In this document: positions 9,967 to 33,695 of the stretch, in pieces
Layout: every line of letters begins with the position of its first letter
Position numbering within the stretch: position 1 is the first letter of the stretch
Virus record (IMG/VR): IMGVR_UViG_2737471863_000001
Length of the DNA stretch: 33,695 nucleotides
Reading direction: 5' to 3' (one strand)
DNA from: a virus
Taxonomy: Duplodnaviria > Heunggongvirae > Uroviricota > Caudoviricetes
Program-made: the position numbers and the translations under genes
The notes under the pieces: model-generated
Databases searched by the model: none
Told to the model about the DNA's origin: nothing
The model's input: the letters and a program-made list of their open reading frames with translations, nothing else

Positions 9967-11240
9967 CAGTCGGTAATCTCCACAGGCTGCGTTGGCAGTA
10001 TGAATGACGGATGGCGCAGGCGGTTACGCTGCACGATTTCATCCCGTCGGCTGGTGTCACCATGTTCGCGCCATGCCAGCAATGCGGCAGATGTGGTTGT
10101 GGTCAGCATTACCTGTCGGGTTTCCGGCAGACGGGCGGCACGCTCGCGGGCATCCGTAATCACGGCCTGCCGTAAATCGCGCAGCGTTCGCCACAATGCC
10201 CGCTGGTTATTTTCCACCGCTGCCACCGCCTGCTCATGCAGTTCAGCTGCCAGCGTGTCACCGGCAGATAACGCCGCATCACTGGTATCGAACGTCATCG
10301 AGGCCACGGCATTTGCCTGTCCCAGCAGGGTTTCCAGCACAACCACCTGGCGGAAGTCGTCAATGTTCTTCTGCAGGCTGTCAGATACCGGCTGATAACC
10401 CGGTGACAGCCCGATAGCAAAGCCGGGTTTGCCGTCTGCCACGCTGCCGGGCTTCACGGTGATATCTTCCGGCAGTGCGCCGGTGGCAACCTGTCGGGCG
10501 CGTTCTCCGGCCCACTGATTGCGTAATGTCGTGTAAACCGCCAGTGCTTCGGGTGGTTCCGTCACCAGATCAACCACGCCGTCGATGAACGAGGACAACT
10601 CACTGACCAGACGTCCCGGCGTGGCAATAATGGTTCCGGCCATCTCCTTAAAATGGTTCAGCCTGTCCATCCACTGATTCAGTGCTGCCGGTAGCGTGGG
10701 CAGGTTAGCCACAAGGTTTTCCATATCAGCCAGAAAGCTGTCGGCCATCTCACCCAGCCCGTCAAGTGCGCCGAACCAGTCGCCATCGTCGATGGCAGCT
10801 TTTACCGCATCAATGCCCGTCAGCACTTCCTGCTGCGTGTTATCCGCCGCAGACGGGAACAGGCGCTCGCCTGCCTCAAACACTTCAAAGGTGACATACG
10901 CAATGCCGTCTTCCTCCGTGCTGAGGCGATGGGTGACCTTGCCAACCTGTACGGTCTGTATCCCGAACCACGGGTGGATAAGCTCGCCGGGGCCGGGAGT
11001 ATTAAGCGCGTCTAAAAGGGCGTTTAAATCATCCTGGAAGTTTTTACCTGGCAGCTTTGCGTTAATCTGCTGTTGCCCCGGAACAGCCCCGTTATCATCC
11101 GTCCAGGCGGTTTCGCGCCGGGGATACGCGCGGGGAATCGCTCTGCGGCCACCGGTGCCTTCTGTATCCACCAGAAAGAAGGGAACGCCGCGAAACGAGG
11201 CATCGCGCAGCCCGTCCCATTTGCCTTTGCTCGTTGTCAT
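9966..11240 (-). CDS. tail/DNA circularisation protein (Mu P/gp43-like)
   Basis: 424 aa, ATG 11240 overlapping the tape-measure stop (TAATG). Confidence 0.7.
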   Translation of the reverse strand: MTTSKGKWDGLRDASFRGVPFFLVDTEGTGGRRAIPRAYPRRETAWTDDNGAVPGQQQINAKLPGKNFQDDLNALLDALNTPGPGELIHPWFGIQTVQVGKVTHRLSTEEDGIAYVTFEVFEAGERLFPSAADNTQQEVLTGIDAVKAAIDDGDWFGALDGLGEMADSFLADMENLVANLPTLPAALNQWMDRLNHFKEMAGTIIATPGRLVSELSSFIDGVVDLVTEPPEALAVYTTLRNQWAGERARQVATGALPEDITVKPGSVADGKPGFAIGLSPGYQPVSDSLQKNIDDFRQVVVLETLLGQANAVASMTFDTSDAALSAGDTLAAELHEQAVAAVENNQRALWRTLRDLRQAVITDARERAARLPETRQVMLTTTTSAALLAWREHGDTSRRDEIVQRNRLRHPSFILPTQPVEITD

Positions 11241-13033
11241 TACCCTTGCTCCACGCTGGTGACGCCAGCCTGCGCACTGAGTCTGACGCCGGGTTGATCC
11301 ACTCTGACACTTTTCACGCGGGCGTCACCTTCCACCACCACACGGATTTCCCCCTGCAACTGCTGCGGCACGAATGGCGCATTCTGCGTGGATTGCAGAA
11401 CATCCCACGGAGACGGTGCGGCGATGTTCTTTTTCTCCAGAGAGTTAAACCAGTTCTTGATATCCGTCCATACCGTCGGGCGGTTGTTGTTTTCCTGAAC
11501 CCGTGCGATTAGCGCATCAGCTTCCTCTTTGTTCTTTGGGAAAGCCGAGAGCACCATGTCAAGGAGATTAAATCCTGATGCCGTTTGTGGTGTAACCAGC
11601 GCTGGCGTCTTTGGCCCACGTGGGTTGCGGGAGTTGCGGGGATTGCGCGATGAATCCGGCGCATCCGGCAGACCGCCGGTATTACCATTCATCCCGCCAC
11701 TGCCCATATTAACCACATAAACCGGCATCACACCGGAGCCGAAAACATCTGTAATGCCACCGGGTATTCCTTTGCCTTTCCCTTTGGGATTCATGATGTC
11801 GTGGATGGTTTTACCGAACCTGTACGTCTTACGCACGGCGATAATGCCACCCAGCGCAATTGCCATATATTTACCGACCTGTAACCAGTTCTGGACGGTG
11901 TTCTGGTCAACGCTGTTGAGTGCATCGGCCAGTTCCTGAACGGGTTTTGCCAGTTGCCCTTCAGCAAAACGTTGCCATTCGTTATTCAGTGACTGCATCG
12001 CGGCATTAAAGCCTTCAGCATTGGTTTGTGCGGCCTTTTGCGTGGAACCCAGTTCAATCGTGCCGTAAATCATTTGTTCCATCAGTTGCCGGTTTTCAGG
12101 GTTAAGCAGCGCCTTAATCCCCTGCATTCCGGTCAGATCAAACACATCCTGAAGTTTCAGCGGGTCGTTTTTGGCCCGTTTAAGGATTTCCATCATCAGT
12201 TCATAAGGCTTTTTGATGTTTTTTGTCCCTTTGACAAAAACATCAATGCCGTTTTTTTTCAGAAACTCGATGTTCTTTTTGTCCGACAGGGAGGCATACA
12301 TGGCCTGAATACTGGTTACCGTCTCATCAATGCTGCCTTTATTTTTGGCGAACACCTGAGCAAATGCCCCCATCTGGGCAATGGCTTCCGGTCCCTGATC
12401 CTGAATGATGGAAAACAGTTTCGGGGCAACGCGGGCAACATCAGCAACACTCACAGACCCCACAGCGAACTGCGCATACAACCTGTCCATTATGTTACTG
12501 ACCGCATCAGATCCCCGGATGTTTTTTTCCCAGAACTGCGCCATCAGCCCGGCAGCAACCTGTCCGTCAACACCGAACGCCTGCATCATCAGCCCCATGT
12601 TGCGGAGGTTGTCCACCACATACTGATAATCACCGGTTTTTCCCAGAAGTTCGCTGGCCCCCTGACCAAGCGCAGAGGCATCAATACGAATATCTTTCTG
12701 GTTCGACACATCCCTGATTTTGTCGTGAAGCGTCTTTACCTGTTCAGTGGTTAACTGGGCATCCGTCCCCATCCGGCGCATCTGCGCATCAAAATCGGCA
12801 ACCTGTTTGATGGTAATGCTACTGCCAAGCCCGGCTATCATTGCCGTGTAGCGGTTACCCAGCACGTCAAGACTGCGCCCGGCGGCCTCCGTTGTGGCTT
12901 TGACCAGGCGCATGGCCTTCTGATGGTTCCGGGCGAACTGCGACATGTTTGCGCCGTACTGCCGGGCTTTGGCGGTCAGGTTCCCGGCAAGGTTGATCAT
13001 GATTTCCGTGCTGAGACGGTTACCTGTTGCCAT
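11240..13033 (-). CDS. tail tape measure protein (Mu N-like)
   Basis: 597 aa, Ala/Gln/Gly-rich and largely alpha-helical in composition; lies between chaperone and baseplate genes. Confidence 0.8.
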   Translation of the reverse strand: MATGNRLSTEIMINLAGNLTAKARQYGANMSQFARNHQKAMRLVKATTEAAGRSLDVLGNRYTAMIAGLGSSITIKQVADFDAQMRRMGTDAQLTTEQVKTLHDKIRDVSNQKDIRIDASALGQGASELLGKTGDYQYVVDNLRNMGLMMQAFGVDGQVAAGLMAQFWEKNIRGSDAVSNIMDRLYAQFAVGSVSVADVARVAPKLFSIIQDQGPEAIAQMGAFAQVFAKNKGSIDETVTSIQAMYASLSDKKNIEFLKKNGIDVFVKGTKNIKKPYELMMEILKRAKNDPLKLQDVFDLTGMQGIKALLNPENRQLMEQMIYGTIELGSTQKAAQTNAEGFNAAMQSLNNEWQRFAEGQLAKPVQELADALNSVDQNTVQNWLQVGKYMAIALGGIIAVRKTYRFGKTIHDIMNPKGKGKGIPGGITDVFGSGVMPVYVVNMGSGGMNGNTGGLPDAPDSSRNPRNSRNPRGPKTPALVTPQTASGFNLLDMVLSAFPKNKEEADALIARVQENNNRPTVWTDIKNWFNSLEKKNIAAPSPWDVLQSTQNAPFVPQQLQGEIRVVVEGDARVKSVRVDQPGVRLSAQAGVTSVEQG

Positions 13034-13882: not shown

Positions 13883-15358
13883 TTAAAGTTTGAACTGAAT
13901 CAGGCCTGCCAGCACACGCAGCTGGTTCACCAGATTCGGGTGGCAGATAAAGTTCAGGCGGTTTTTATCACTGCTGTCGCGTGTCACCTGAAGCGTGTCC
14001 TTGTAATCGCTGAAGTTCTCCACAAGGCCCGCAGGAATAAGTTCGGTCTGGCAGATATCCAGCAGCTCTGCGGTGCACAGCTTCGGCGTCATCACCGGTT
14101 GCCCCGCATCCAGTGAGTCCAGCACGTCATCATCTGCCAGCTTGTGGCGCGGATAACGGTTCGTGAAACGGTTTTTGATGATGTAACGGATACGGCCCAG
14201 CGTGGCGGGGGACTGCACATCCAGGTACGACACATCCGCATCACCGTACTGGTTAACCCGGTACATGGTGATTTCACGCTCGATGCAGACGTTATCCCCG
14301 GCGTCCACCATGTGCGTGGCAATGCCGTCATGCAGCAGCAGGTTACGTTCCGGCATATCCCAGCGAACATTACGCGCAGGCGGCAGAATGCCGGTCAGGA
14401 CCAGCGTCTGAAGCGGACGCGCCGGGTCAATGGCAAGGTGATACGCTGCCGTTGCGCCGTATGACGCGGCCCACATCCACGCCGGGTGCGGTGACAGGTT
14501 GGTGCCGATACAGCTAATCAGCCAGTCATTGCGGGTTTCACCAAACGTGCCTGTCTCGCCGTGTGTGCCACGAAACGCCGTCCACAGCTGCGCCTCCATC
14601 ATTTTGAGCGGCCCCCAGCGGTTCAGCAGTTCATCACGCAGGGTGTTCAGGCTTTTCGTGTCGGTGAACGGGGCGATGATATCGGTAAACCACTCCGGGC
14701 CGATGGCCGCAACGGCCTCTGCCATTTCCGGTGTCCCGGTGCCGCCGGTAAACGCAGTTGCGGTCACCTTCACACCTGCCGGGAAGGCTTCACCGGTGTA
14801 GTAGTTCAGGCGAACGTCGGCACCGTTGCCGGTGACGCCGTGCCAGTTCACGGTCAGCTCCACGGTATCCGTGGCATCATCCTTCACCGCAGCGGCCACC
14901 TGCGTGGCAGGCTTTTTCGTCACCGCATCAGCAATGGCTTTTGCAATGTTTTCCTTCGTAGCCCCGGCGCTCACGCTCACCTGAACGGACACACCGTTAA
15001 TCAGCAGTGCCACCGTTCCGGCTTCAGTCGCTGTCCCCAGCACGGTCAGCGTGGCTTTTGCGGCCGCGCCTTCAGGCGCGGCAACCGGCATTGCCCAGGT
15101 TTCCGTATACGTGTTGGCACGACGCAGCATTTTGAGCATTTCAGCCAGCATCGACCCTTTGCCATAAAGCTGGTCTGCCTGGCTGTCACTGGTGATGCGG
15201 GTCAGTGACAGGGCGTCTGCGCTGCCGGACGATACCGCATGGCCCATGACCAGAATTTTTCGGCTTTGCGCGGATGCACCATCCAGCGCCTGTGAATTGT
15301 CGATATCGATCCAGACAAGCGGGACGCGGATATCATCAGGAATTGAACCCAGCGACAT
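13883..15358 (-). CDS. contractile tail sheath protein (Mu L-like)
   Basis: 491 aa, ATG 15358; size, composition and position typical of myovirus sheath. Confidence 0.85.
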   Translation of the reverse strand: MSLGSIPDDIRVPLVWIDIDNSQALDGASAQSRKILVMGHAVSSGSADALSLTRITSDSQADQLYGKGSMLAEMLKMLRRANTYTETWAMPVAAPEGAAAKATLTVLGTATEAGTVALLINGVSVQVSVSAGATKENIAKAIADAVTKKPATQVAAAVKDDATDTVELTVNWHGVTGNGADVRLNYYTGEAFPAGVKVTATAFTGGTGTPEMAEAVAAIGPEWFTDIIAPFTDTKSLNTLRDELLNRWGPLKMMEAQLWTAFRGTHGETGTFGETRNDWLISCIGTNLSPHPAWMWAASYGATAAYHLAIDPARPLQTLVLTGILPPARNVRWDMPERNLLLHDGIATHMVDAGDNVCIEREITMYRVNQYGDADVSYLDVQSPATLGRIRYIIKNRFTNRYPRHKLADDDVLDSLDAGQPVMTPKLCTAELLDICQTELIPAGLVENFSDYKDTLQVTRDSSDKNRLNFICHPNLVNQLRVLAGLIQFKL

Positions 15359-25868: not shown

Positions 25869-26266
25869 GAATCCCCCTTATGAAAACGGCGCTGATGTTT
25901 ATAAAGTGCCGCGCAAAAAATACCGCCCAGCCAGAACGCCAGCTGATAAGGCTCCTTCAGATAAAGAATGCCGAATGTCAGCATGAAAAAACCAACGGCC
26001 CAGACCACCCATGACCACACGACAATTCGAAGGGAAGCGGCCCGGAAACGCCTTTTGGGTTGCAGGCGATAAGGTACGTTGCCCAGCTGGAAACTGTGAA
26101 TCAGACAGAGTGTCGCGCCGTATGCCAGCACCATGACCGCAAACGCCCGCCATCCGGCAAAACAGCTCGCCAGAAAAAGGACTGCCGACAGCCCCAGAAA
26201 CGACCACTGGCACAACATAAAGCGGGAGCAAATAACGCGAACAAAAAGACTATTCATTCTGTGCAT
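25856..26266 (-). CDS. small membrane protein with about four predicted TM helices (holin candidate)
   Basis: Start taken at internal ATG 26266 (AAGGAAA SD), about 136 aa; the 5' part of the track ORF overlaps the preceding gene and lacks an SD. Confidence 0.4.
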   Translation of the reverse strand: MHRMNSLFVRVICSRFMLCQWSFLGLSAVLFLASCFAGWRAFAVMVLAYGATLCLIHSFQLGNVPYRLQPKRRFRAASLRIVVWSWVVWAVGFFMLTFGILYLKEPYQLAFWLGGIFCAALYKHQRRFHKGDSWIR

Positions 26267-26477
26267 TGAGTTTTTCCTTGTACTTCTGGCACTGCCAGAA
26301 AATGTCCCGTGTATCCACGGCGTTCCAGCCACGCATGTAGTAGCTGGCGTGTGTGCCGTCATGGCCGGTATAGTCCAGCGGTTTCGGGGGCGGACCTCCG
26401 GCCATGCGGTGCAGAACCTCCTGACGCAGGCGGTCACGCCGCCCGGCTTTCAGTGAGGCATCCCAGCCTTTGCCCAT
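26250..26477 (-). CDS. hypothetical 75-aa protein directly after the endolysin
   Basis: ATG 26477 two nt after the lys stop, with GGGGGTGA SD; soluble, no family recognised. Confidence 0.35.
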   Translation of the reverse strand: MGKGWDASLKAGRRDRLRQEVLHRMAGGPPPKPLDYTGHDGTHASYYMRGWNAVDTRDIFWQCQKYKEKLNAQNE

Positions 26478-26478
26478 A

Positions 26479-27075
26479 TCACCCCCGCGTGGCGGACATG
26501 ATGCCCAGAGGGGTATCGATGATTTCCAGACAGGCGTCGGTCAGCTTTTCCATGCGGTTAAACCAGCCGTTCAGGTATTTGCCCTGGGCGGGTTTTGATT
26601 TGATGATGTCGGCATAAAAGCGGGAGCGACGGACAATACAGCGGGCCAGCAGCCAGTCAGGGGTGGACTGGCTCACGGCCTTGCGGGTACGCGGCCCGAT
26701 GATGCCGTCAGCATCCACATCAGCGGCTTCCTGCAAAAGTTTGATAGCCTTTTTAACGCCATGCTGAACCGCCGCATCAAACACAAAAAGCGCCACGCCA
26801 TCAGGCCACTGGTCACATCCGGCAGGCAGCCAGTAATCACGCAGGTAAATCTGTGCGGCCTGTTCGCGGGTTAAATCTTTGATGCGGGTATCCGGTTTAC
26901 CGTCACCGTTGACATCGGTTTTGCCGTCAATCACACCGTCGCGGCGGTCAGAAATGCCGTATTTGGTTTCGCCGCCACGGTCAGTGGAGTCATTGACATA
27001 GACGCCTTCGATATCGGGACGCAGAATGAAATTCAGCGCATGCTCAAAGGCCGGGGAGAATTTTTGATTTTCCAT
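26479..27075 (-). CDS. endolysin: GH108-type lysozyme domain with C-terminal peptidoglycan-binding domain, no N-terminal SAR/TM segment
   Basis: 198 aa, ATG 27075; hallmark IEGVYVNDSTDRGGETKYGIS of the GH108 family; no hydrophobic N-terminus. Confidence 0.8.
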   Translation of the reverse strand: MENQKFSPAFEHALNFILRPDIEGVYVNDSTDRGGETKYGISDRRDGVIDGKTDVNGDGKPDTRIKDLTREQAAQIYLRDYWLPAGCDQWPDGVALFVFDAAVQHGVKKAIKLLQEAADVDADGIIGPRTRKAVSQSTPDWLLARCIVRRSRFYADIIKSKPAQGKYLNGWFNRMEKLTDACLEIIDTPLGIMSATRG

Positions 27076-27160: not shown

Positions 27161-27610
27161 TTAAGGGCGTCGTGGCGGACGACGAACGGGGTGAGGCAGG
27201 TTCGGGGAGGGGTAAAACAAATCCGGCTGGTATTTATTGCGCTCCAGACGTCGCATCCGTTTGATGGCCTTGTAGACGGTTTTATACGTCACTCCGTAAC
27301 GCTGAACCAGTTCAGGAATATTATGGCCGTTAAAATCACGCCAGATACGCATATCCCGGACAAGATTCTCCAGAATATTCCCCCTCGGAACATAAACCTG
27401 CATCCCGCCGATATGGCGACAAATCGCCACAACCAGCTCAAGGGAATGAGCAGGGTCTGCGCCAATCCGGGCCAGCTCTTTACGCAGCAGTGCGTTCAGT
27501 TCAGAAAGTAACGCCGGATAAGCGGTGTTTTCCTGGTAATCATGAAGATATTCCAGAACGCTGTCGTCCCGGAGGTCTTCGAATAAATCCTGCTCTTTCA
27601 TCTGTTTCAT
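27161..27610 (-). CDS. Mor/C-family transcription activator (cannot say whether Mor or C orthologue)
   Basis: 149 aa, ATG 27610 overlapping the gemA stop (ATGA); N-terminal acidic region and C-terminal HTH VYKAIKRMRRLE; sits between gemA and lys. Confidence 0.7.
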   Translation of the reverse strand: MKQMKEQDLFEDLRDDSVLEYLHDYQENTAYPALLSELNALLRKELARIGADPAHSLELVVAICRHIGGMQVYVPRGNILENLVRDMRIWRDFNGHNIPELVQRYGVTYKTVYKAIKRMRRLERNKYQPDLFYPSPNLPHPVRRPPRRP

Positions 27611-28158
27611 ACAGCAATTCTCCCGCTGTTTCGTGCGCGGGCATACGCACTGGTCAGTGCATCATAGCCGCGCAGTTCCCGCCCGGATGGGCTTACAGGT
27701 AAAGGCACACCATGTCGGGCAAAGGCTTCACGGATGCAGCGCATGTGCCACTGTTTGAGCGTTTCGAGCACAACCTGCAACGATTCCCCGTGACACCATG
27801 CCAGCGTGGAAACACCCTGACCGCCATTACGTCTGGCCGTCAGGCGTTCAACGTATTTGTCCAGCGCGGCGTCGCTGATATCGGATACGAAACCATCAAG
27901 AAACATCTGCTGCCAGATTTTATAAATCTTCTCGCGCGGTGTGACATGCCCCTTAAAGCGACGGCGGGGATGTTTATTCTGCTTTTTAAAACCGCGCTCT
28001 TTCATGGCATCGAGCACTTGTTCCAGTTGTGCAACGGACAGCTCGCGGCAACTGGTTTTGCCCGTGCACTGCACCAGAAAGGCGCGGTAAGTGTCATCGT
28101 CGAGGTGCAACTCCCGGCGGGCAACATGAATTAATTTAATCAGGGATGTGCGACTCAT
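27607..28158 (-). CDS. gemA: GemA-like protein (Mu gp16 family)
   Basis: Start taken at ATG 28158 (AAGGAGA SD), 183 aa; N-terminus MSRTSLIKLIHVARRELHLDDDTYRAF is characteristic of the gp16/GemA family. Confidence 0.6.
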   Translation of the reverse strand: MSRTSLIKLIHVARRELHLDDDTYRAFLVQCTGKTSCRELSVAQLEQVLDAMKERGFKKQNKHPRRRFKGHVTPREKIYKIWQQMFLDGFVSDISDAALDKYVERLTARRNGGQGVSTLAWCHGESLQVVLETLKQWHMRCIREAFARHGVPLPVSPSGRELRGYDALTSAYARARNSGRIAV

Positions 28159-28525
28159 TTTGCCCCATCTCCTTAATGCAGTGTTTTTCGACCCATGCCA
28201 CACGAGCAGAATTCAGGTGGCATCTGTCATGCAGGCATTCATCATGGTAGTGCACGTTATCTACATTAAATGGCAGGGATTCATCCAGCCCACTCGCGAC
28301 AAAATCCGCATGTAATTGTTCTAGCGCAGCCTCGCTGTCTGCTCCGATTGATTCAAAATAGTCATAAACATTGGCGCATAATCCGACTCCCCGAATAAAC
28401 CCTTCCCCTTCCGTTTCTTGCGCTCCGTTTTTTAACCACTGGTTATAGGCGACATAAAAATCATAAAGATGTTTTCTGGTGCTGGCGGATGCGGATTTAA
28501 TTTCATTTTTCTCTGCGTTATTCAT
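28136..28525 (-). CDS. hypothetical early-region protein
   Basis: 129 aa, ATG 28525; acidic, Cys/His-containing C-terminus; no family recognised. Confidence 0.4.
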   Translation of the reverse strand: MNNAEKNEIKSASASTRKHLYDFYVAYNQWLKNGAQETEGEGFIRGVGLCANVYDYFESIGADSEAALEQLHADFVASGLDESLPFNVDNVHYHDECLHDRCHLNSARVAWVEKHCIKEMGQNESHIPD

Positions 28526-28700
28526 TTCTTAATACCTCTTCGCAATAAAAGATTTCATTGGGATAATGTTTTTGTATGCGCTCCATCACCTGCATACATG
28601 CCTGCTCGGTGGGCCAGATTTTTTCCGTTACAGGGATGGCATCACAGGCATCATTCCCGCAGGTGCCAACCAGCAGGACAAAGCCAATTGACTTAATCAT
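28518..28700 (-). CDS. small Cys-rich protein with hydrophobic N-terminus (possibly exported/lipoprotein-like)
   Basis: 60 aa from ATG 28700, coupled to the upstream stop (ATGATTAA); six Cys; track ORF opens at GTG 28796 inside the previous gene. Confidence 0.3.
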   Translation of the reverse strand: MIKSIGFVLLVGTCGNDACDAIPVTEKIWPTEQACMQVMERIQKHYPNEIFYCEEVLRNE

Positions 28701-29235
28701 GTTCACTGACTTCCTGTGTTGCGGCCGGAGCTGGTGAATAATCAAGAATGAGATAGCGCATGACGTGGTCGGTGATATTCCAGCCACTGGAACCACAAAT
28801 AAAGCGCCCCAGCCGGATATCGATATACGCCATCACAAAACGGGGCATTCCCTGTTTGCACATCTCGTCATCCACTTCAGCAACGATGTAAACCGACTCG
28901 CAGGTCAGTACGCCTGTCGCAAATTCTTTTGCCAGTGCCGGAATGGCATTGCCTTCCAGCCAGGGCAAAGAGCGGCGGAACGCGCACCATTGAGCATCAT
29001 CAACATCGGGGTGTTCCGTTGTTGCGTTTCGTCTTACAGGAGGCGTCGGACGAGGGCGCGGAACGTCATAAAATCCGTTGCATTCAGTGAGAACTCCGGC
29101 ATCAACCGCATCACGCAGGAAATACACCATTGAGGAAGGTGGCATCTTCATTTTTTCAGCCAGAACACCACAGGTCAGACGCCCGTAAGTCCGTAATAAT
29201 GTGCTGACACCGTTCAAAACTTTTGCATCAACCAT
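28693..29235 (-). CDS. hypothetical early-region protein (possible N-terminal winged-helix)
   Basis: 180 aa, ATG 29235 with AAGGAA SD; first gene after the 99-bp spacer downstream of gam. Confidence 0.45.
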   Translation of the reverse strand: MVDAKVLNGVSTLLRTYGRLTCGVLAEKMKMPPSSMVYFLRDAVDAGVLTECNGFYDVPRPRPTPPVRRNATTEHPDVDDAQWCAFRRSLPWLEGNAIPALAKEFATGVLTCESVYIVAEVDDEMCKQGMPRFVMAYIDIRLGRFICGSSGWNITDHVMRYLILDYSPAPAATQEVSEHD

Positions 29236-29334
29236 TTTTTTATTCCTTAGTAATCTGTTTCAGGCGCGAGCAATCCCCTGACGCATCGCGCCATAATTAA
29301 AAGAAAGTGAATTAATTAAATATTAATGGTGGTA

Positions 29335-29859
29335 TTAAATACCGGCTTCCTGTTCAAACGGAATAATGGAAAAATCTTCAATTCCAGACTTAACTGTAAT
29401 TCCGGCAACACCTGCGACCGCTTTCGGTTCCAGTAAAATCGCTTCCTTGTTGATTTCCTGTTTCGTGCGAATAAAGCGTTGCAGGCCAAGACGCTCCAGC
29501 GTTTCCATCACCGCATCCACACCGCGAATACTTACCGATGGTGGGCGCTGACGCCATGACACATCGCCGGTTACCAGGTTCGCCGTCTTCACCTTGCCGC
29601 CGTTCGTCAGTTCGTCGCGGTTCGCTTCACACCATCCCTGAACGCCTTTTGAAAGGGTTTCGATACTGGTTTTTAGCGGCGCAATCTGTGAGGCGTATTT
29701 CTCTGTAATTTCAGCGATAGCGTCATTCATTTCCGTTTCAAGTCGTGCCGCTTCGCGTTGCAGGTCACCAATCCGGCGGATATCACATACCACGGCATCG
29801 CGGGACTGTGGAACATAAGCCGCTGCGGCATTCTTGATTCGTTTTGCTGGTTTAGCCAT
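29335..29859 (-). CDS. gam: Gam host-nuclease inhibitor (DNA-end-binding, Ku-like)
   Basis: 174 aa, the Mu Gam length; ATG 29859 with AGGAG SD; sequence closely resembles recalled Mu Gam. Confidence 0.85.
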   Translation of the reverse strand: MAKPAKRIKNAAAAYVPQSRDAVVCDIRRIGDLQREAARLETEMNDAIAEITEKYASQIAPLKTSIETLSKGVQGWCEANRDELTNGGKVKTANLVTGDVSWRQRPPSVSIRGVDAVMETLERLGLQRFIRTKQEINKEAILLEPKAVAGVAGITVKSGIEDFSIIPFEQEAGI

Positions 29860-29879
29860 ATAAATAAAGCTCCTGTTAA

Positions 29880-30170
29880 TTAATATTCGCTGTATACAAT
29901 GCTGGATACAGCACGATTGCTTAATTCCATCTTTTGGGCAATGACATGAATAGCCAGCCCTTCTTTATAAAGTTCACGACACAAATATTTGTCGTGCTCA
30001 CTGACCCGGTATGCACACAACGATATTCCGTGCCTTCTGGCATGTGCCTGTAGGGCGGTTGGGGCAACGTTCAGTTTTTTCGCCATTTCCTCGACGGTCA
30101 TTTTCCCGACACTGGCTTCGATAAATTCCCGGTCTTCGCGTGACCATCTTTTGCGAGTGATTATCATCAT
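29880..30170 (-). CDS. small putative DNA-binding protein with helix-turn-helix-like segments
   Basis: 96 aa from ATG 30170 with AGGAGG SD; MTVEEMAKKLNVAPTALQAHARRHGI and LAIHVIAQKMELSNRAV resemble HTH motifs. Confidence 0.45.
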   Translation of the reverse strand: MMIITRKRWSREDREFIEASVGKMTVEEMAKKLNVAPTALQAHARRHGISLCAYRVSEHDKYLCRELYKEGLAIHVIAQKMELSNRAVSSIVYSEY

Positions 30171-30729: not shown

Positions 30730-31668
30730 TTACGTGCGCAGCAGGGTTGAAATATCAACGTCGAGGTCTAATTCACGGAAAGCCTGACGCAGATAATCTT
30801 CATTAACACGTTCACCTTTGCCGTGGGCGGTCATGGCCGCAAGGCGCAGCGAGTGGTTCAGGATGCGAAGTGCACCTGGTTTTTGCGCAATCTGCTGTAA
30901 TAATTCCCGCTCGTTTTCGCCGGTAATTTGCCAGGCATCCGCAATGGCCTTTACATCATCAATTTTGGTTTTATTGATTGCCGTCCGTTTGGCAATACGG
31001 GAAAACAGTCGGGCAAATTCAACCGTTCTGTTACCACCGGTCATGTTTGAATAAACGCGGTGATTCCCCATCAGAACAAGGCCAATACGGGCGGATTCCT
31101 GCAACAGGCGGAGTTCTTCCAGAACTTCAGCGCCAAGATGATCAGCTTCGTCGATAATGACCAGCCCCTGCGTACCTTCAAGGCGGCGTCGCAAAGCGCG
31201 GGAGAGCGGCCCTTTGCGGCGCGGTGCGTCATTCATTCCCAGTTCATACGCCAGTTCAGTGAGACATTCCAGAACACTGGCGCAGGATGGGGTAATGGTG
31301 ATCATCCAGACATTGTTATTGGTGCGACGAAATTCGCGGGCTGCTTCAGTTTTTCCCACACCTGGATTACCGCAGATAACAGAAATACTTTCAGTCAGAC
31401 TGGCAAAACGCATACTCGTCCAGATTTGGCGTGCTGTTCTGGTTTCCACAAAACGCGGTGGTTCTGGCAGCTCTGCGGCACGGTGATAGTTCTCCAGCCA
31501 GCGTTCCAGCGTCTGCGCAACACGTTCATTGTCGCCGTTGTACTTGTTATTCACGAATGCGCTTAACGTTCCTGCGGCCACGCCGGACTCGCGGGCAATT
31601 TGTGCATAAGTAGCTTTTTCACTTTCTACAAGCGTGCGCAGTCCTGCGCGAATATCGGAAATATTCAT
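30730..31668 (-). CDS. B: MuB-type ATP-dependent target DNA activator
   Basis: 312 aa, the Mu B length; Walker A motif [11 protein letters not shown] 31668 with GAGG SD; immediately downstream of A. Confidence 0.9.
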
Positions 31669-31706: not shown

Positions 31707-33695
31707 TTAAATGGCTTTTTTACGTCTGTTCTGTTCCAGAATATCCAGCGAATGATTCAGATATTCATCACGATCAGTTTCATATTCCTCATCGGGTTCC
31801 TGGTATTTCACCTGCACCGTGTTACCGGAAGGCCGGAAAATACCAACAACTCTTGATTCTGGTGCTGCTGGTTCGGCTATCTGCGGCAGCAGTTCAGCAA
31901 CTTCCAGCGCGTCCATTTGTTTCTGCGCCTTAATGGCTGCTTTAGTTGCAGATTTCAGTTGTTTCTGGCGGCGGCGATATTCACGGCCTGCCGCAGCATC
32001 ATTAAACGCAACAGGTGCCAGACATTCCGCTTCACAGATAAACCGACCGTCCAGGGTGTAGCAATAAACCGTGCTGTGTAGCTGCTGCGGATCAAATCTG
32101 ACCACAACTTTTTTCACGCCGGCATTCATTAACGCCATGTTGTAATAAACGTTTTTTGCACCTTTAAGGGAGCCGCCAACTTTAAGCGTAAACTCGCCTT
32201 TGCGTGAAACGTTCACCGCCTCGGCAGGCAGCAACAGCATCCGTTTTTGTTCTTCGGTCGGCTTACGCACAATCGTTCTGGCGTATTCACGCTCAAAAAC
32301 GTCATCAAACGAAAGTTTGCCTCCGCACATTTCTGTTTCACGACCTGTTCTGGCATTGAACATCGCAACACCTTCAGCAAGGGTTTTCAGAAACAGCTCT
32401 GCATCAACAGCACGGTCGCCATAGTTATCAGGTTTTGCCTGCGGATTTGGCCCCGTATATGCGCCAGCCAGTGCCGGATGCTTATCAACGTATTCCTCAA
32501 GCCCACCAACACCGAAAGCACGTTCAACAGGTTTTGCCTGGCCCCAGCCTTTACCGGCAACAACGCTTGTCCAGTGCATTTTCGCGCCCATCAGTAAAAA
32601 CAGCCCCTTTGGATCGTCCTCTTTCACCTTAAAGCGGTAACGATTGGGCGCGCCCCCCGTCAGCCATTTATTCGCTGCACCACGGGTGTTATCGATGGTG
32701 ATGTGAAAATCCTCCGGGATGCCGTAGCGTGTCACCACATCCATGAACGAGAGGCGAATTGAATCGATGTTCTCGCTTACATCGCAGCGCCAGCCCAGAA
32801 TTTTTCGTGTTTTCACATCCTGCCAGAACCATGTTTTCGGGCGGATCACATCACCGTTAAACCAGCGTACAAAAACGTTATGCAGATAACCGTCGCCGTT
32901 GATCCACTGCATGGCGTCCAGGTGTTCCACAGTTCGCTGTTGTGCCGGTATCAGATGCATCAGTGCATGTTCACCTTCACGGCAGGCAACAACCATTGCC
33001 TCGTCCAGTTGCTGAATCCGGCGAAAGGCCGTGGCACGGGAGGGAATACTCCAGCCATGCTCGCGGGCTGCCAGTTCCAGACGCTCATAACATTTGCGGA
33101 AGGCGGGTTTTTCTGGTCGCAGATAATCTGCAATCAGAAACTGCCAGGCATCCTCGTCAAATTCACTTTTGTGAACGTTGCGACGGGATGCACCACGTCC
33201 ATCAACAAGCGCAGCCGCCCAGTCAGGCTTCGCAAACTTCTGTACCTGGTAATATTTGTCTCGCAAAGTGGATGCGCTGACCTGGTAATGTCCTGCAACG
33301 GTCGCAAATGCCGTTTTCGTTGAAACCCCCTGGTTCAGCATTTCGTCTGCAGCCTGAACCGCAGGCAACCATTTTTCAGCAAGTCTGCGCTGGGAATCGC
33401 TGGCGTTATCCCATTTGCTCCACAGTGCCTCACGATCATAATCATGGGCTTCCAGCGTGGGGCGGGCGATTTCAAAACGGCCCTGGCTTGTTTCAATACC
33501 TCCTTGTTGCAATAAAATTTCAGCACGTAATGCAACAGGAAATGATTTGATATTGAATTCAAATGATACACCTTTAGTACCTGTAACTTGCCTAAACACC
33601 CAGCCTTCTCTTTGTGCCTTACGTGTAATGTTAGTTGCTTGCTTTGGCAAACCAGCAAAACCAAGCAATTCTTTCGCTGTATACCACTCTTTCAT
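31707..33695 (-). CDS. A: MuA-type DDE transposase
   Basis: 662 aa; ATG is the last 3 nt of the window (cat 33693-33695); most of the protein matches recalled Mu A, N-terminal about 70 aa differ. Confidence 0.9.

Follow-up and report, generated by a model that had tools for sequence, protein, structure and literature searches.

Gene organization of the early block

We analysed three adjacent open reading frames (ORFs) in a 33,695-nucleotide (nt) stretch of viral DNA, hereafter called "the window" (IMG/VR record IMGVR_UViG_2737471863_000001; Duplodnaviria; Heunggongvirae; Uroviricota; Caudoviricetes). The last 9 kb of the window constitutes a Mu-type early region, lying entirely on the minus strand, in the order transposase A, transposase B, kil, a gp7-like gene, a gp9-like gene, gam, the three ORFs, gemA, mor and an endolysin gene. 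The A, B, kil, gam, gemA and mor genes were assigned by Pfam and PHROG matches, and these neighbours bear out a preliminary description, made from the letters of the sequence, that had assigned the block to the variable, semi-essential part of the early genes of a Mu-like phage. The block comprises one gene that sequence comparison identifies as the orthologue of Mu gp11, and two small putative accessory genes, here called w60 and w129 after the lengths of their products in amino acids (aa):

28693-29235, minus strand: 180-aa ORF, the Mu gp11 orthologue (Pfam PF25754, phrog_1949)
28518-28700, minus strand: 60-aa ORF, accessory gene w60 (phrog_16556; its ATG lies within a longer 92-aa ORF with a GTG start)
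28136-28525, minus strand: 129-aa ORF, accessory gene w129 (phrog_6418, phrog_2510)

The block thus belongs to a known kind of region. In Mu-like phages, the semi-essential region is poorly conserved and its genes are largely uncharacterised (PMC3820752, PMC8705779).

Are the three ORFs real genes? All of them are present on the minus strand within 28136-29235 and are coupled, as had been proposed. Successive ORFs overlap by 8 nt at ATGA-like junctions (..CATGATTAA.. and ..AAATGAATAA..), a purine-rich Shine-Dalgarno-like stretch is located 8-10 nt 5′ of the ORF starts, and the last 23 nt of the w129 ORF overlap gemA, from its ATG at 28158. RefSeq, too, has these three coding sequences (CDSs) in the identical prophage of Escherichia coli XJ34, each labelled "hypothetical protein". 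The pairwise ratios of nonsynonymous to synonymous substitution rates (dN/dS) against diverged homologues are 0.13 for the 180-aa protein (versus Mu), 0.08-0.20 for the 60-aa protein and 0.25 for the 129-aa protein. All three proteins match PHROG families, with E-values from 1e-27 to 1e-102, and the AlphaFold2 models of w60 and w129 have a mean predicted local distance difference test score (pLDDT) of 90. A sequence scan of the coding strand revealed no sigma-70-like promoter and no intrinsic terminator within or between the three ORFs. The sole minus-strand promoter-like match, at 27945-27917, is located downstream in gemA, and such matches are fewer than in shuffled sequences. The lack of internal promoters and terminators fits the membership of the three genes in a long early transcript. 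Because of the overlaps, the ribosome-binding stretches, the RefSeq CDSs, the lack of internal signals and the low dN/dS ratios, we regard the three ORFs, on the evidence of their sequence, as genuine, coupled genes of the early operon.

The surrounding DNA is shared with several bacterial chromosomes. A chromosomal prophage of E. coli XJ34 matches the region 27600-29900 with 100% identity, and three RM strains match it with 99.9%; of 5426 complete E. coli genomes, about 90 contain a related segment. The gam-gp11 gene order is the same in Mu, D108, SfMu and the Yersinia Mu-like phages.

The 180-aa protein corresponds to Mu gp11

The 180-aa protein shares 87.6% identity over 177 aa with Mu Mup11 (formerly E10/E11/E12). 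It matches PF25754, the C-terminal domain of phage Mu Gp11 (Gp11_C), with 132.2 bits against a cutoff of 27 (residues 91-168, profile positions 1-78 of 78), and phrog_1949 from end to end with an E-value of 1.4e-102. At the DNA level, gam and the adjoining sequence as far as the 3′ end of gp11 are 88% identical to Mu. Mup11 likewise lies immediately after gam and is built of the same two parts; few residues differ between the two proteins, and the C-terminal tail of the window protein is slightly longer. By every comparison of sequence, the 180-aa protein is the orthologue of Mu gp11, an early protein of unassigned role. The preliminary description had found no recognisable family for any of the three ORFs, which does not apply to this one and holds for w60 and w129 in Pfam, NCBIfam and PADLOC.

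The gp11 protein consists of a near-invariant N-terminal part of about 60 residues, a variable linker rich in proline and arginine, and the moderately conserved C-terminal Gp11_C domain. The N-terminal part is almost unchanged (GRLTCGVLAEKM.MPPSSMVYFLRDAVDAGVLTECNGFYD.PRPR) across homologues of 61-97% identity, taken from the 80 nearest gp11-encoding prophage loci that were recovered from IMG/VR. This part yields sub-threshold Pfam matches that are all of the winged-helix type, namely HTH_20 (E-value 0.065), HTH_10 and PCI, with E-values of 0.07-0.35 and scores far under the gathering scores of 22-27 bits. Single-sequence and profile searches of the PDB retrieved no relative of gp11 and produced only noise (MIF). 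A DNA-binding, possibly winged-helix, N-terminal domain is therefore a reasonable guess from the sequence.

The gp11-gemA slot exchanges single genes

In Mu, the space between gp11 and gemA is occupied by gp12, gp13, gp14 and the oppositely oriented gp15. These genes resemble w60 and w129 in their slot, their early operon and their small size. The arrangements found in this slot include the following:

Window and XJ34: gp11-w60-w129-gemA
PSS-15: gp11-w60-gp14-gp15-gemA
E300082: gp11-w129-gemA
Mu: gp11-gp12-gp13-gp14-gp15-gemA

In 63 IMG/VR loci with both genes, gp11 and gemA are separated by as little as 78 bp and as much as 2658 bp; the slot takes about 30 arrangements, drawn from more than a dozen small gene families, in a catalogue that includes some spurious antisense ORFs of less than 60 aa. 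One of these loci (L117, IMGVR_UViG_3300045988_125570) has an empty slot, with gemA only 78 bp after gp11. None of the tested cassette families has a Pfam assignment beyond the weak zinc-ribbon matches of gp13.

The breakpoints of DNA homology coincide with the gene junctions, at 28158/28159, 28495, 28561 and 28721-28725, and homology to Mu picks up again exactly at 28158. The G+C contents of the two cassette genes are 0.437 and 0.449, as compared with 0.51-0.55 in gp11 and gemA. This low G+C content is reminiscent of "morons", which carry their own flanking promoter and terminator. No such signals lie within or between the three genes on the minus strand here, and the genes are coupled to their neighbours.

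We considered w60 and w129 as an obligate pair and rejected this idea, as each occurs without the other. Moreover, the w60 frame is shifted after about residue 27 in several prophages (L031, L032, L047 and L106), yielding products of 48-55 aa; similar 48-aa fragments of w60 are found in the protein databases (P0017/P0019). Because loci lack w60, w129 or both, and because w60 is frameshifted in some prophages, the contents of the slot appear to be dispensable, and the slot itself is, as far as the sequences tell, an exchange point for accessory genes. By the same comparison, only w60 and w129 are variable members of the block, and gp11 is a core gene.

The cassettes of the window are not those of Mu in another guise. 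Homology of w60 to Mu gp13, and of w129 to Mu gp14 or gp12, was rejected for want of sequence similarity. Mu gp13 is 60 aa long and Cys-rich like w60, but it is a double zinc ribbon with eight cysteines, while w60 is a β-β-α-β protein with four. The slot proteins of three other loci (L164, 4368-5186; L166, 4382-5017; L171, 4335-4940 and 4937-5689) look Eaa/Ea22-like by eye, with coiled-coil segments and ..CRA.IL.GG endings. If this resemblance is true, then Mu-like and lambdoid phages share one pool of accessory modules.

w60 is probably a small cytoplasmic protein

The w60 protein matches phrog_16556 (E-value 1.8e-27, profile positions 2-55 of 55) and has no match in Pfam (also at E-values up to 10), NCBIfam or PADLOC; PDB sequence and profile searches returned only noise (SAR1). 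At least 149 IMG/VR stretches encode a homologue. Outside Mu-like phages, homologues occur among the early recombination, methylase and int-xis genes of temperate Yersinia, Hafnia and Aeromonas phages, and in none of the non-Mu loci examined does w60 stand together with w129. The preliminary description called the protein Cys-rich, which is fair: its four cysteines (Cys14, Cys19, Cys35 and Cys53) are all invariant in the family, as is the loop CGxDACDAxPV.

AlphaFold2, run on a nine-sequence alignment, predicts a compact fold (pLDDT 90.5) consisting of β1 (residues 3-14), β2 (19-29), a helix (32-45) and β3 (50-59). A fold search with this model placed the anti-CRISPR AcrIC8 (PDB 8g9s) at the top, with 8% identity, and also listed T7 Gp2, an inhibitor of RNA polymerase; the fold is simple and recurrent. 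AcrIC8 acts by binding Cas8 and Cas7 of the type I-C Cascade, a system absent from E. coli, and there is no detectable sequence homology between it and w60. The four invariant cysteines and the CGxDACDA loop set w60 apart as a separate sequence family. We therefore read the model as indicating a small inhibitor-like fold, and nothing more.

Is w60 exported? The preliminary description had suggested an exported superinfection-exclusion or membrane-targeting factor, and w60 could accordingly be a lipoprotein or membrane-anchored protein of the T5 Llp/Cor kind, with a signal peptide cleaved before Cys14. Small phage lipoproteins are of comparable size, the N-terminus of w60 (MIKSIGFVLLVGTC) is hydrophobic with one lysine and is followed by an invariant Cys-Gly, and many homologues carry LLVSSC or LLVSAC, which are compatible with a lipobox. 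A lipobox reads [LVI][ASTVI][GAS]-C and follows a basic n-region and a hydrophobic core (the PROSITE PS51257 rule). The window protein has V-G-T-C with Thr at position -1, and the homologues have Ser, Ala, Pro or Thr there; Pro, which prevails in a large subfamily, and Thr are both unlike a lipobox. The cysteine is preceded by 11-13 residues, mostly devoid of Lys and Arg in the homologues, and most family members begin with MLIGFVLLVSSCG, which has no basic residue and places the cysteine at position 12. Unlike in signal peptides, the N-terminal residues Gly6, Phe7, Leu9, Leu10 and Val11 are conserved as strongly as the core. In the model, residues 3-14 are paired as a strand of the three-stranded sheet with high confidence (pLDDT of 86-87 in this segment), and a lipidated protein would retain three cysteines, an odd number for disulfides. 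These observations make export very unlikely, and w60 is probably not exported; the export hypothesis can be set aside.

w129 represents a broad family of phage domains

The w129 protein matches two PHROGs without a function, phrog_6418 (1.9e-49) and phrog_2510 (3.1e-29), and consists of one copy of a helical domain of about 100 aa, at residues ~18-117. It has no match in Pfam (also at E-values up to 10), NCBIfam or PADLOC, and neither PDB sequence and profile searches nor structure comparison found a solved relative. When 1.84 billion representative proteins were searched exhaustively, 516 clusters emerged at E-values up to 1e-3, most of them stand-alone proteins of about 105 aa, some with two or three tandem copies and some with the domain inside longer proteins. 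With tblastn, the domain was detected in 219-239 phage records, including Phapecoctavirus, N4-like Achromobacter and Escherichia phages, Burkholderia jumbo phages, and Rhizobium, Campylobacter, Erwinia and Salmonella phages. The family is restricted to phages, with a single match among 72,556 plasmids, so we rejected w129 as a general anti-restriction gene of mobile elements.

Its members have an early location in four unrelated phage types. In phAPEC8 (L172, NC_020079.1 2776-27081), seven paralogs lie within 12 kb of an array of small early genes on the same strand (at 4235-4588, 4551-4946, 8001-8312, 11230-11553, 11983-12312, 14893-15294 and 16189-16572 of L172). An N4-like metagenomic phage (L173) has a homologue between the N4 gp1/gp2-like genes and the RNAP II genes, and a Tad2-like (PF11195) gene lies on the other strand at a distance of about 4.8 kb (L173, 1-225 and 5001-5318). 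A lambdoid prophage carries its homologue between P and Q, in the nin region. Escherichia phage SusanneMuster_Bas79 (PQ850629.1) contains an unannotated homologue (L007, 3893-4294, plus strand; E-value 8e-32 against the hidden Markov model of the family), where the same DNA is annotated as the opposite-strand CDS Bas79_0090, probably a mis-call.

We next examined the conservation of 173 aligned domains. Cys50, Pro85 and Phe86 are invariant (171 of 171 each), as is Arg108 (169 of 169), and Asn105 is kept in 168 of 170; Phe23, Trp30, Gly48, Leu49 and Trp111 are more than 90% conserved. His103 is replaced in 33 cases, only by Tyr or Trp. The window protein carries all of the invariant residues and the motifs F..Y..W, GLC, PFN and N..R..W. 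Such strictly kept polar residues in phages of distant hosts suggest one universal target or ligand.

Domain fusions provide the only hints of function. In four Mu-like prophages (L163, 3530-4225; L109, L110 and L116), a 231-aa ORF joins an N-terminal extension, the w129 domain and the double zinc ribbon of Mu gp13, and this fusion accounts for the 231 positions of the phrog_6418 profile. It suggests that the helical domain and small Cys-rich proteins may work together. In another protein (P0036), the w129 domain is fused to a restriction-alleviation ribbon of the Lar family (TIGR03655, 41.2 bits against a cutoff of 39.6). One protein joins the domain to a dATP/dGTP pyrophosphohydrolase and DUF7415, and another joins it to DUF551.

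Two known groups of early proteins can be compared with w129. The Lar/Ral restriction-alleviation proteins are likewise small early prophage proteins, and the link to them is the P0036 fusion; Pfam and NCBIfam detect no Lar domain in w129 and no match of w60 to the Lar model. The other group comprises the non-essential, mosaic Eaa/Ea22-type early proteins of the exo-xis and nin regions of lambdoid and P22-like phages, some of which contain the w129 domain internally: several mosaic proteins embed it, and their other segments match "EaA protein" genes. The window protein is the bare 129-aa domain, lacking the Eaa N-terminal segment, the ALASLEAEP-type coiled coil and the ..WNACRAAML.. module. 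Lambda Ea22 has been reported to favour lysogeny (PMC7093339, PMC10834534).

Proposed role of the block

What could these genes do? The interpretation that we favour, and which we hold to be somewhat better than an even bet, is that the block makes up the distal part of this semi-essential early operon, with one core gene and two accessory cassettes that supply early host-interaction or counter-defence factors. In our proposal, the early promoter that serves A, B, kil and gam also drives the block, whose genes are translated through stop/start coupling. The two cassettes would be gained, lost or swapped singly at gene boundaries, with the gp11-gemA junction serving as a recombination hot spot. 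Both proteins would be soluble and cytoplasmic; w60 would resemble small phage inhibitor proteins in size and shape, and the conserved Cys, Pro-Phe, Asn and Arg residues of w129 would engage a single conserved partner, either a ligand or a target in the host. Soon after induction or infection, w60 and w129 may then bind and modulate host components, whether for takeover, counter-defence or the tuning between lytic and lysogenic growth. Their location in the cell, early action, inhibitory mode of binding and targets are all inferred. An essential phage function is unlikely for either. The anti-defence or host-takeover idea of the preliminary description remains plausible for the block.

Several observations weigh against this interpretation. 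For none of the three proteins did the searches of Pfam, NCBIfam, PADLOC and the PDB turn up a homologue whose activity has been tested, and structure comparison gave none for w129 either; the remote-homology and structure check called for at the outset identified gp11 and gave predicted folds for w60 and w129. PADLOC had no match at E-values up to 1 for any of the three, although, as a library of defence systems, its silence says nothing on counter-defence. Our literature search found nothing on the function of gp11, w60 or w129. The placement of w60 in the cytoplasm depends on a structure predicted from nine sequences. A general ArdA-like role in anti-restriction is hard to square with how rarely w129 is seen on plasmids, and the strict conservation of w129 residues across phages of alpha-, beta-, gamma- and epsilonproteobacteria is unlike that of fast-evolving inhibitors and could point instead to enzymatic activity or to a part in the DNA metabolism of the phage. 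Finally, gp11 is conserved like a housekeeping gene, and its role may be internal to Mu replication.

This last point leads to a reading that we consider rather unlikely for the block as a whole: that the block, chiefly gp11, serves Mu DNA transactions, as a DNA-binding accessory for replicative transposition or as an early-to-middle regulator, and represents "arm" (amplified replication of Mu), which we take to map between gam and gem. The gp11 gene was kept, with no instance of a swap, in all 80 gp11-containing prophage loci recovered. The first 60 aa of its product stay near-invariant even at 61% overall identity, its weak N-terminal matches are to winged-helix families only, and its dN/dS ratio is 0.13. 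Against this stand the distance of those matches from any threshold, the lack of a PDB relative and the semi-essential class of the region, and a role in Mu replication leaves out the dispensable w60 and w129, one or both of which are missing from some loci. For gp11 itself, we give about equal odds to a host-directed role and to a phage-internal one, in which it would bind DNA in replication or regulation.

The strict conservation of w129 also invites the view that it is an enzyme, or a "sponge" for a small molecule such as a nucleotide or signal, rather than a protein-binding inhibitor. Cys50, Arg108, Asn105, the aromatic residue 103, Tyr93, Glu96 and the Pro85-Phe86 loop would line its pocket. 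The restriction of residue 103 to His, Tyr or Trp is the pattern of a stacking residue, the recurrence of the same invariant residues among phages whose hosts are very distantly related suggests that the ligand is universal, and the pyrophosphohydrolase fusion, the tandem proteins with two and three domains and the Tad2-like gene in the N4-like early region are in line with it. Conversely, the clustering of these residues in space is conjectured from the sequence, the model has no structural similarity to known sponges or enzymes, the invariant aromatic and proline residues may merely stabilise the fold, and the fusion is a single protein. We consider this view doubtful, yet a serious rival. 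Equally doubtful, and of greater consequence, is a wider proposal: that this large, undescribed family, with a fold unlike solved structures and a conserved Cys-Arg-Asn(-aromatic) site acting on a universal bacterial ligand or target, could be a new early module for counter-defence or host takeover, either enzyme or signal sponge, paired with small partners of the zinc-ribbon or Cys-rich kind, such as Mu gp13, Lar or w60. At the other extreme, w60 and w129 might be decaying or non-functional filler between gp11 and gemA, since the slot can be empty and w60 is truncated by frameshifts in some prophages. Purifying selection, confident compact folds, large conserved families and preserved coupling largely refute this, and we give it hardly any credence.

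These findings would not surprise a phage specialist. The gp11 gene is catalogued, and w60 and w129 belong to existing PHROGs. Pfam, NCBIfam, PHROG and RefSeq do not annotate, and no paper that we found describes, the extent and invariant residues of the w129 family, its lack of a solved structural relative, its zinc-ribbon fusions, or the division of the gp11-gemA junction into cassettes of one gene each. The junction thereby becomes a defined hot spot for the exchange of single small genes in enterobacterial Mu-like prophages, and its contents form a catalogue of candidate host-interaction genes. As w129 is a broad phage-only family with many paralogs in large virulent phages, the function of one member would annotate hundreds of genes.

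Neighbouring genes

The genes and spacer around the block are as follows:

31707-33695, minus strand: transposase A (Pfam/PHROG)
30730-31668, minus strand: transposase B (Pfam/PHROG)
29335-29859, minus strand: gam, host-nuclease inhibitor, the upstream neighbour that anchors the block (Pfam Phage_Mu_Gam, 148 bits; phrog_491; RefSeq "host-nuclease inhibitor Gam family protein")
29236-29334, minus strand: gam-gp11 intergenic spacer, holding a GC-rich hairpin that lacks a U-tract and AAGGA, the Shine-Dalgarno sequence of the 180-aa ORF
27607-28158, minus strand: gemA (gp16 family), the downstream neighbour (Pfam GemA, 113 bits; 82% identity to Mu gp16 from MSRTSL; RefSeq coordinates)

The spacer belongs to the stretch that is 88% identical to Mu DNA. 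Its hairpin (GGCGCGA...UCGCGCC) folds as RNA with -19.7 kcal/mol, at a z-score of only -1.8, and was not scored as a terminator in the terminator scan. For gemA, the homology to Mu gp16 and the RefSeq annotation set the start at the ATG at 28158, giving a protein of 183 aa. The GTG at 28203 in the mechanical ORF list, which would give 198 aa, was overruled by the Mu gp16 homology, RefSeq and the DNA homology. The gene order beyond mor is unlike that of Mu: a GH108 endolysin gene (26479-27075, minus strand) adjoins mor and is followed by a Mu gp18 homologue (26250-26477, minus strand), while in Mu, mor is followed by gp18, gp19, gp20, C and then the lysozyme gene.

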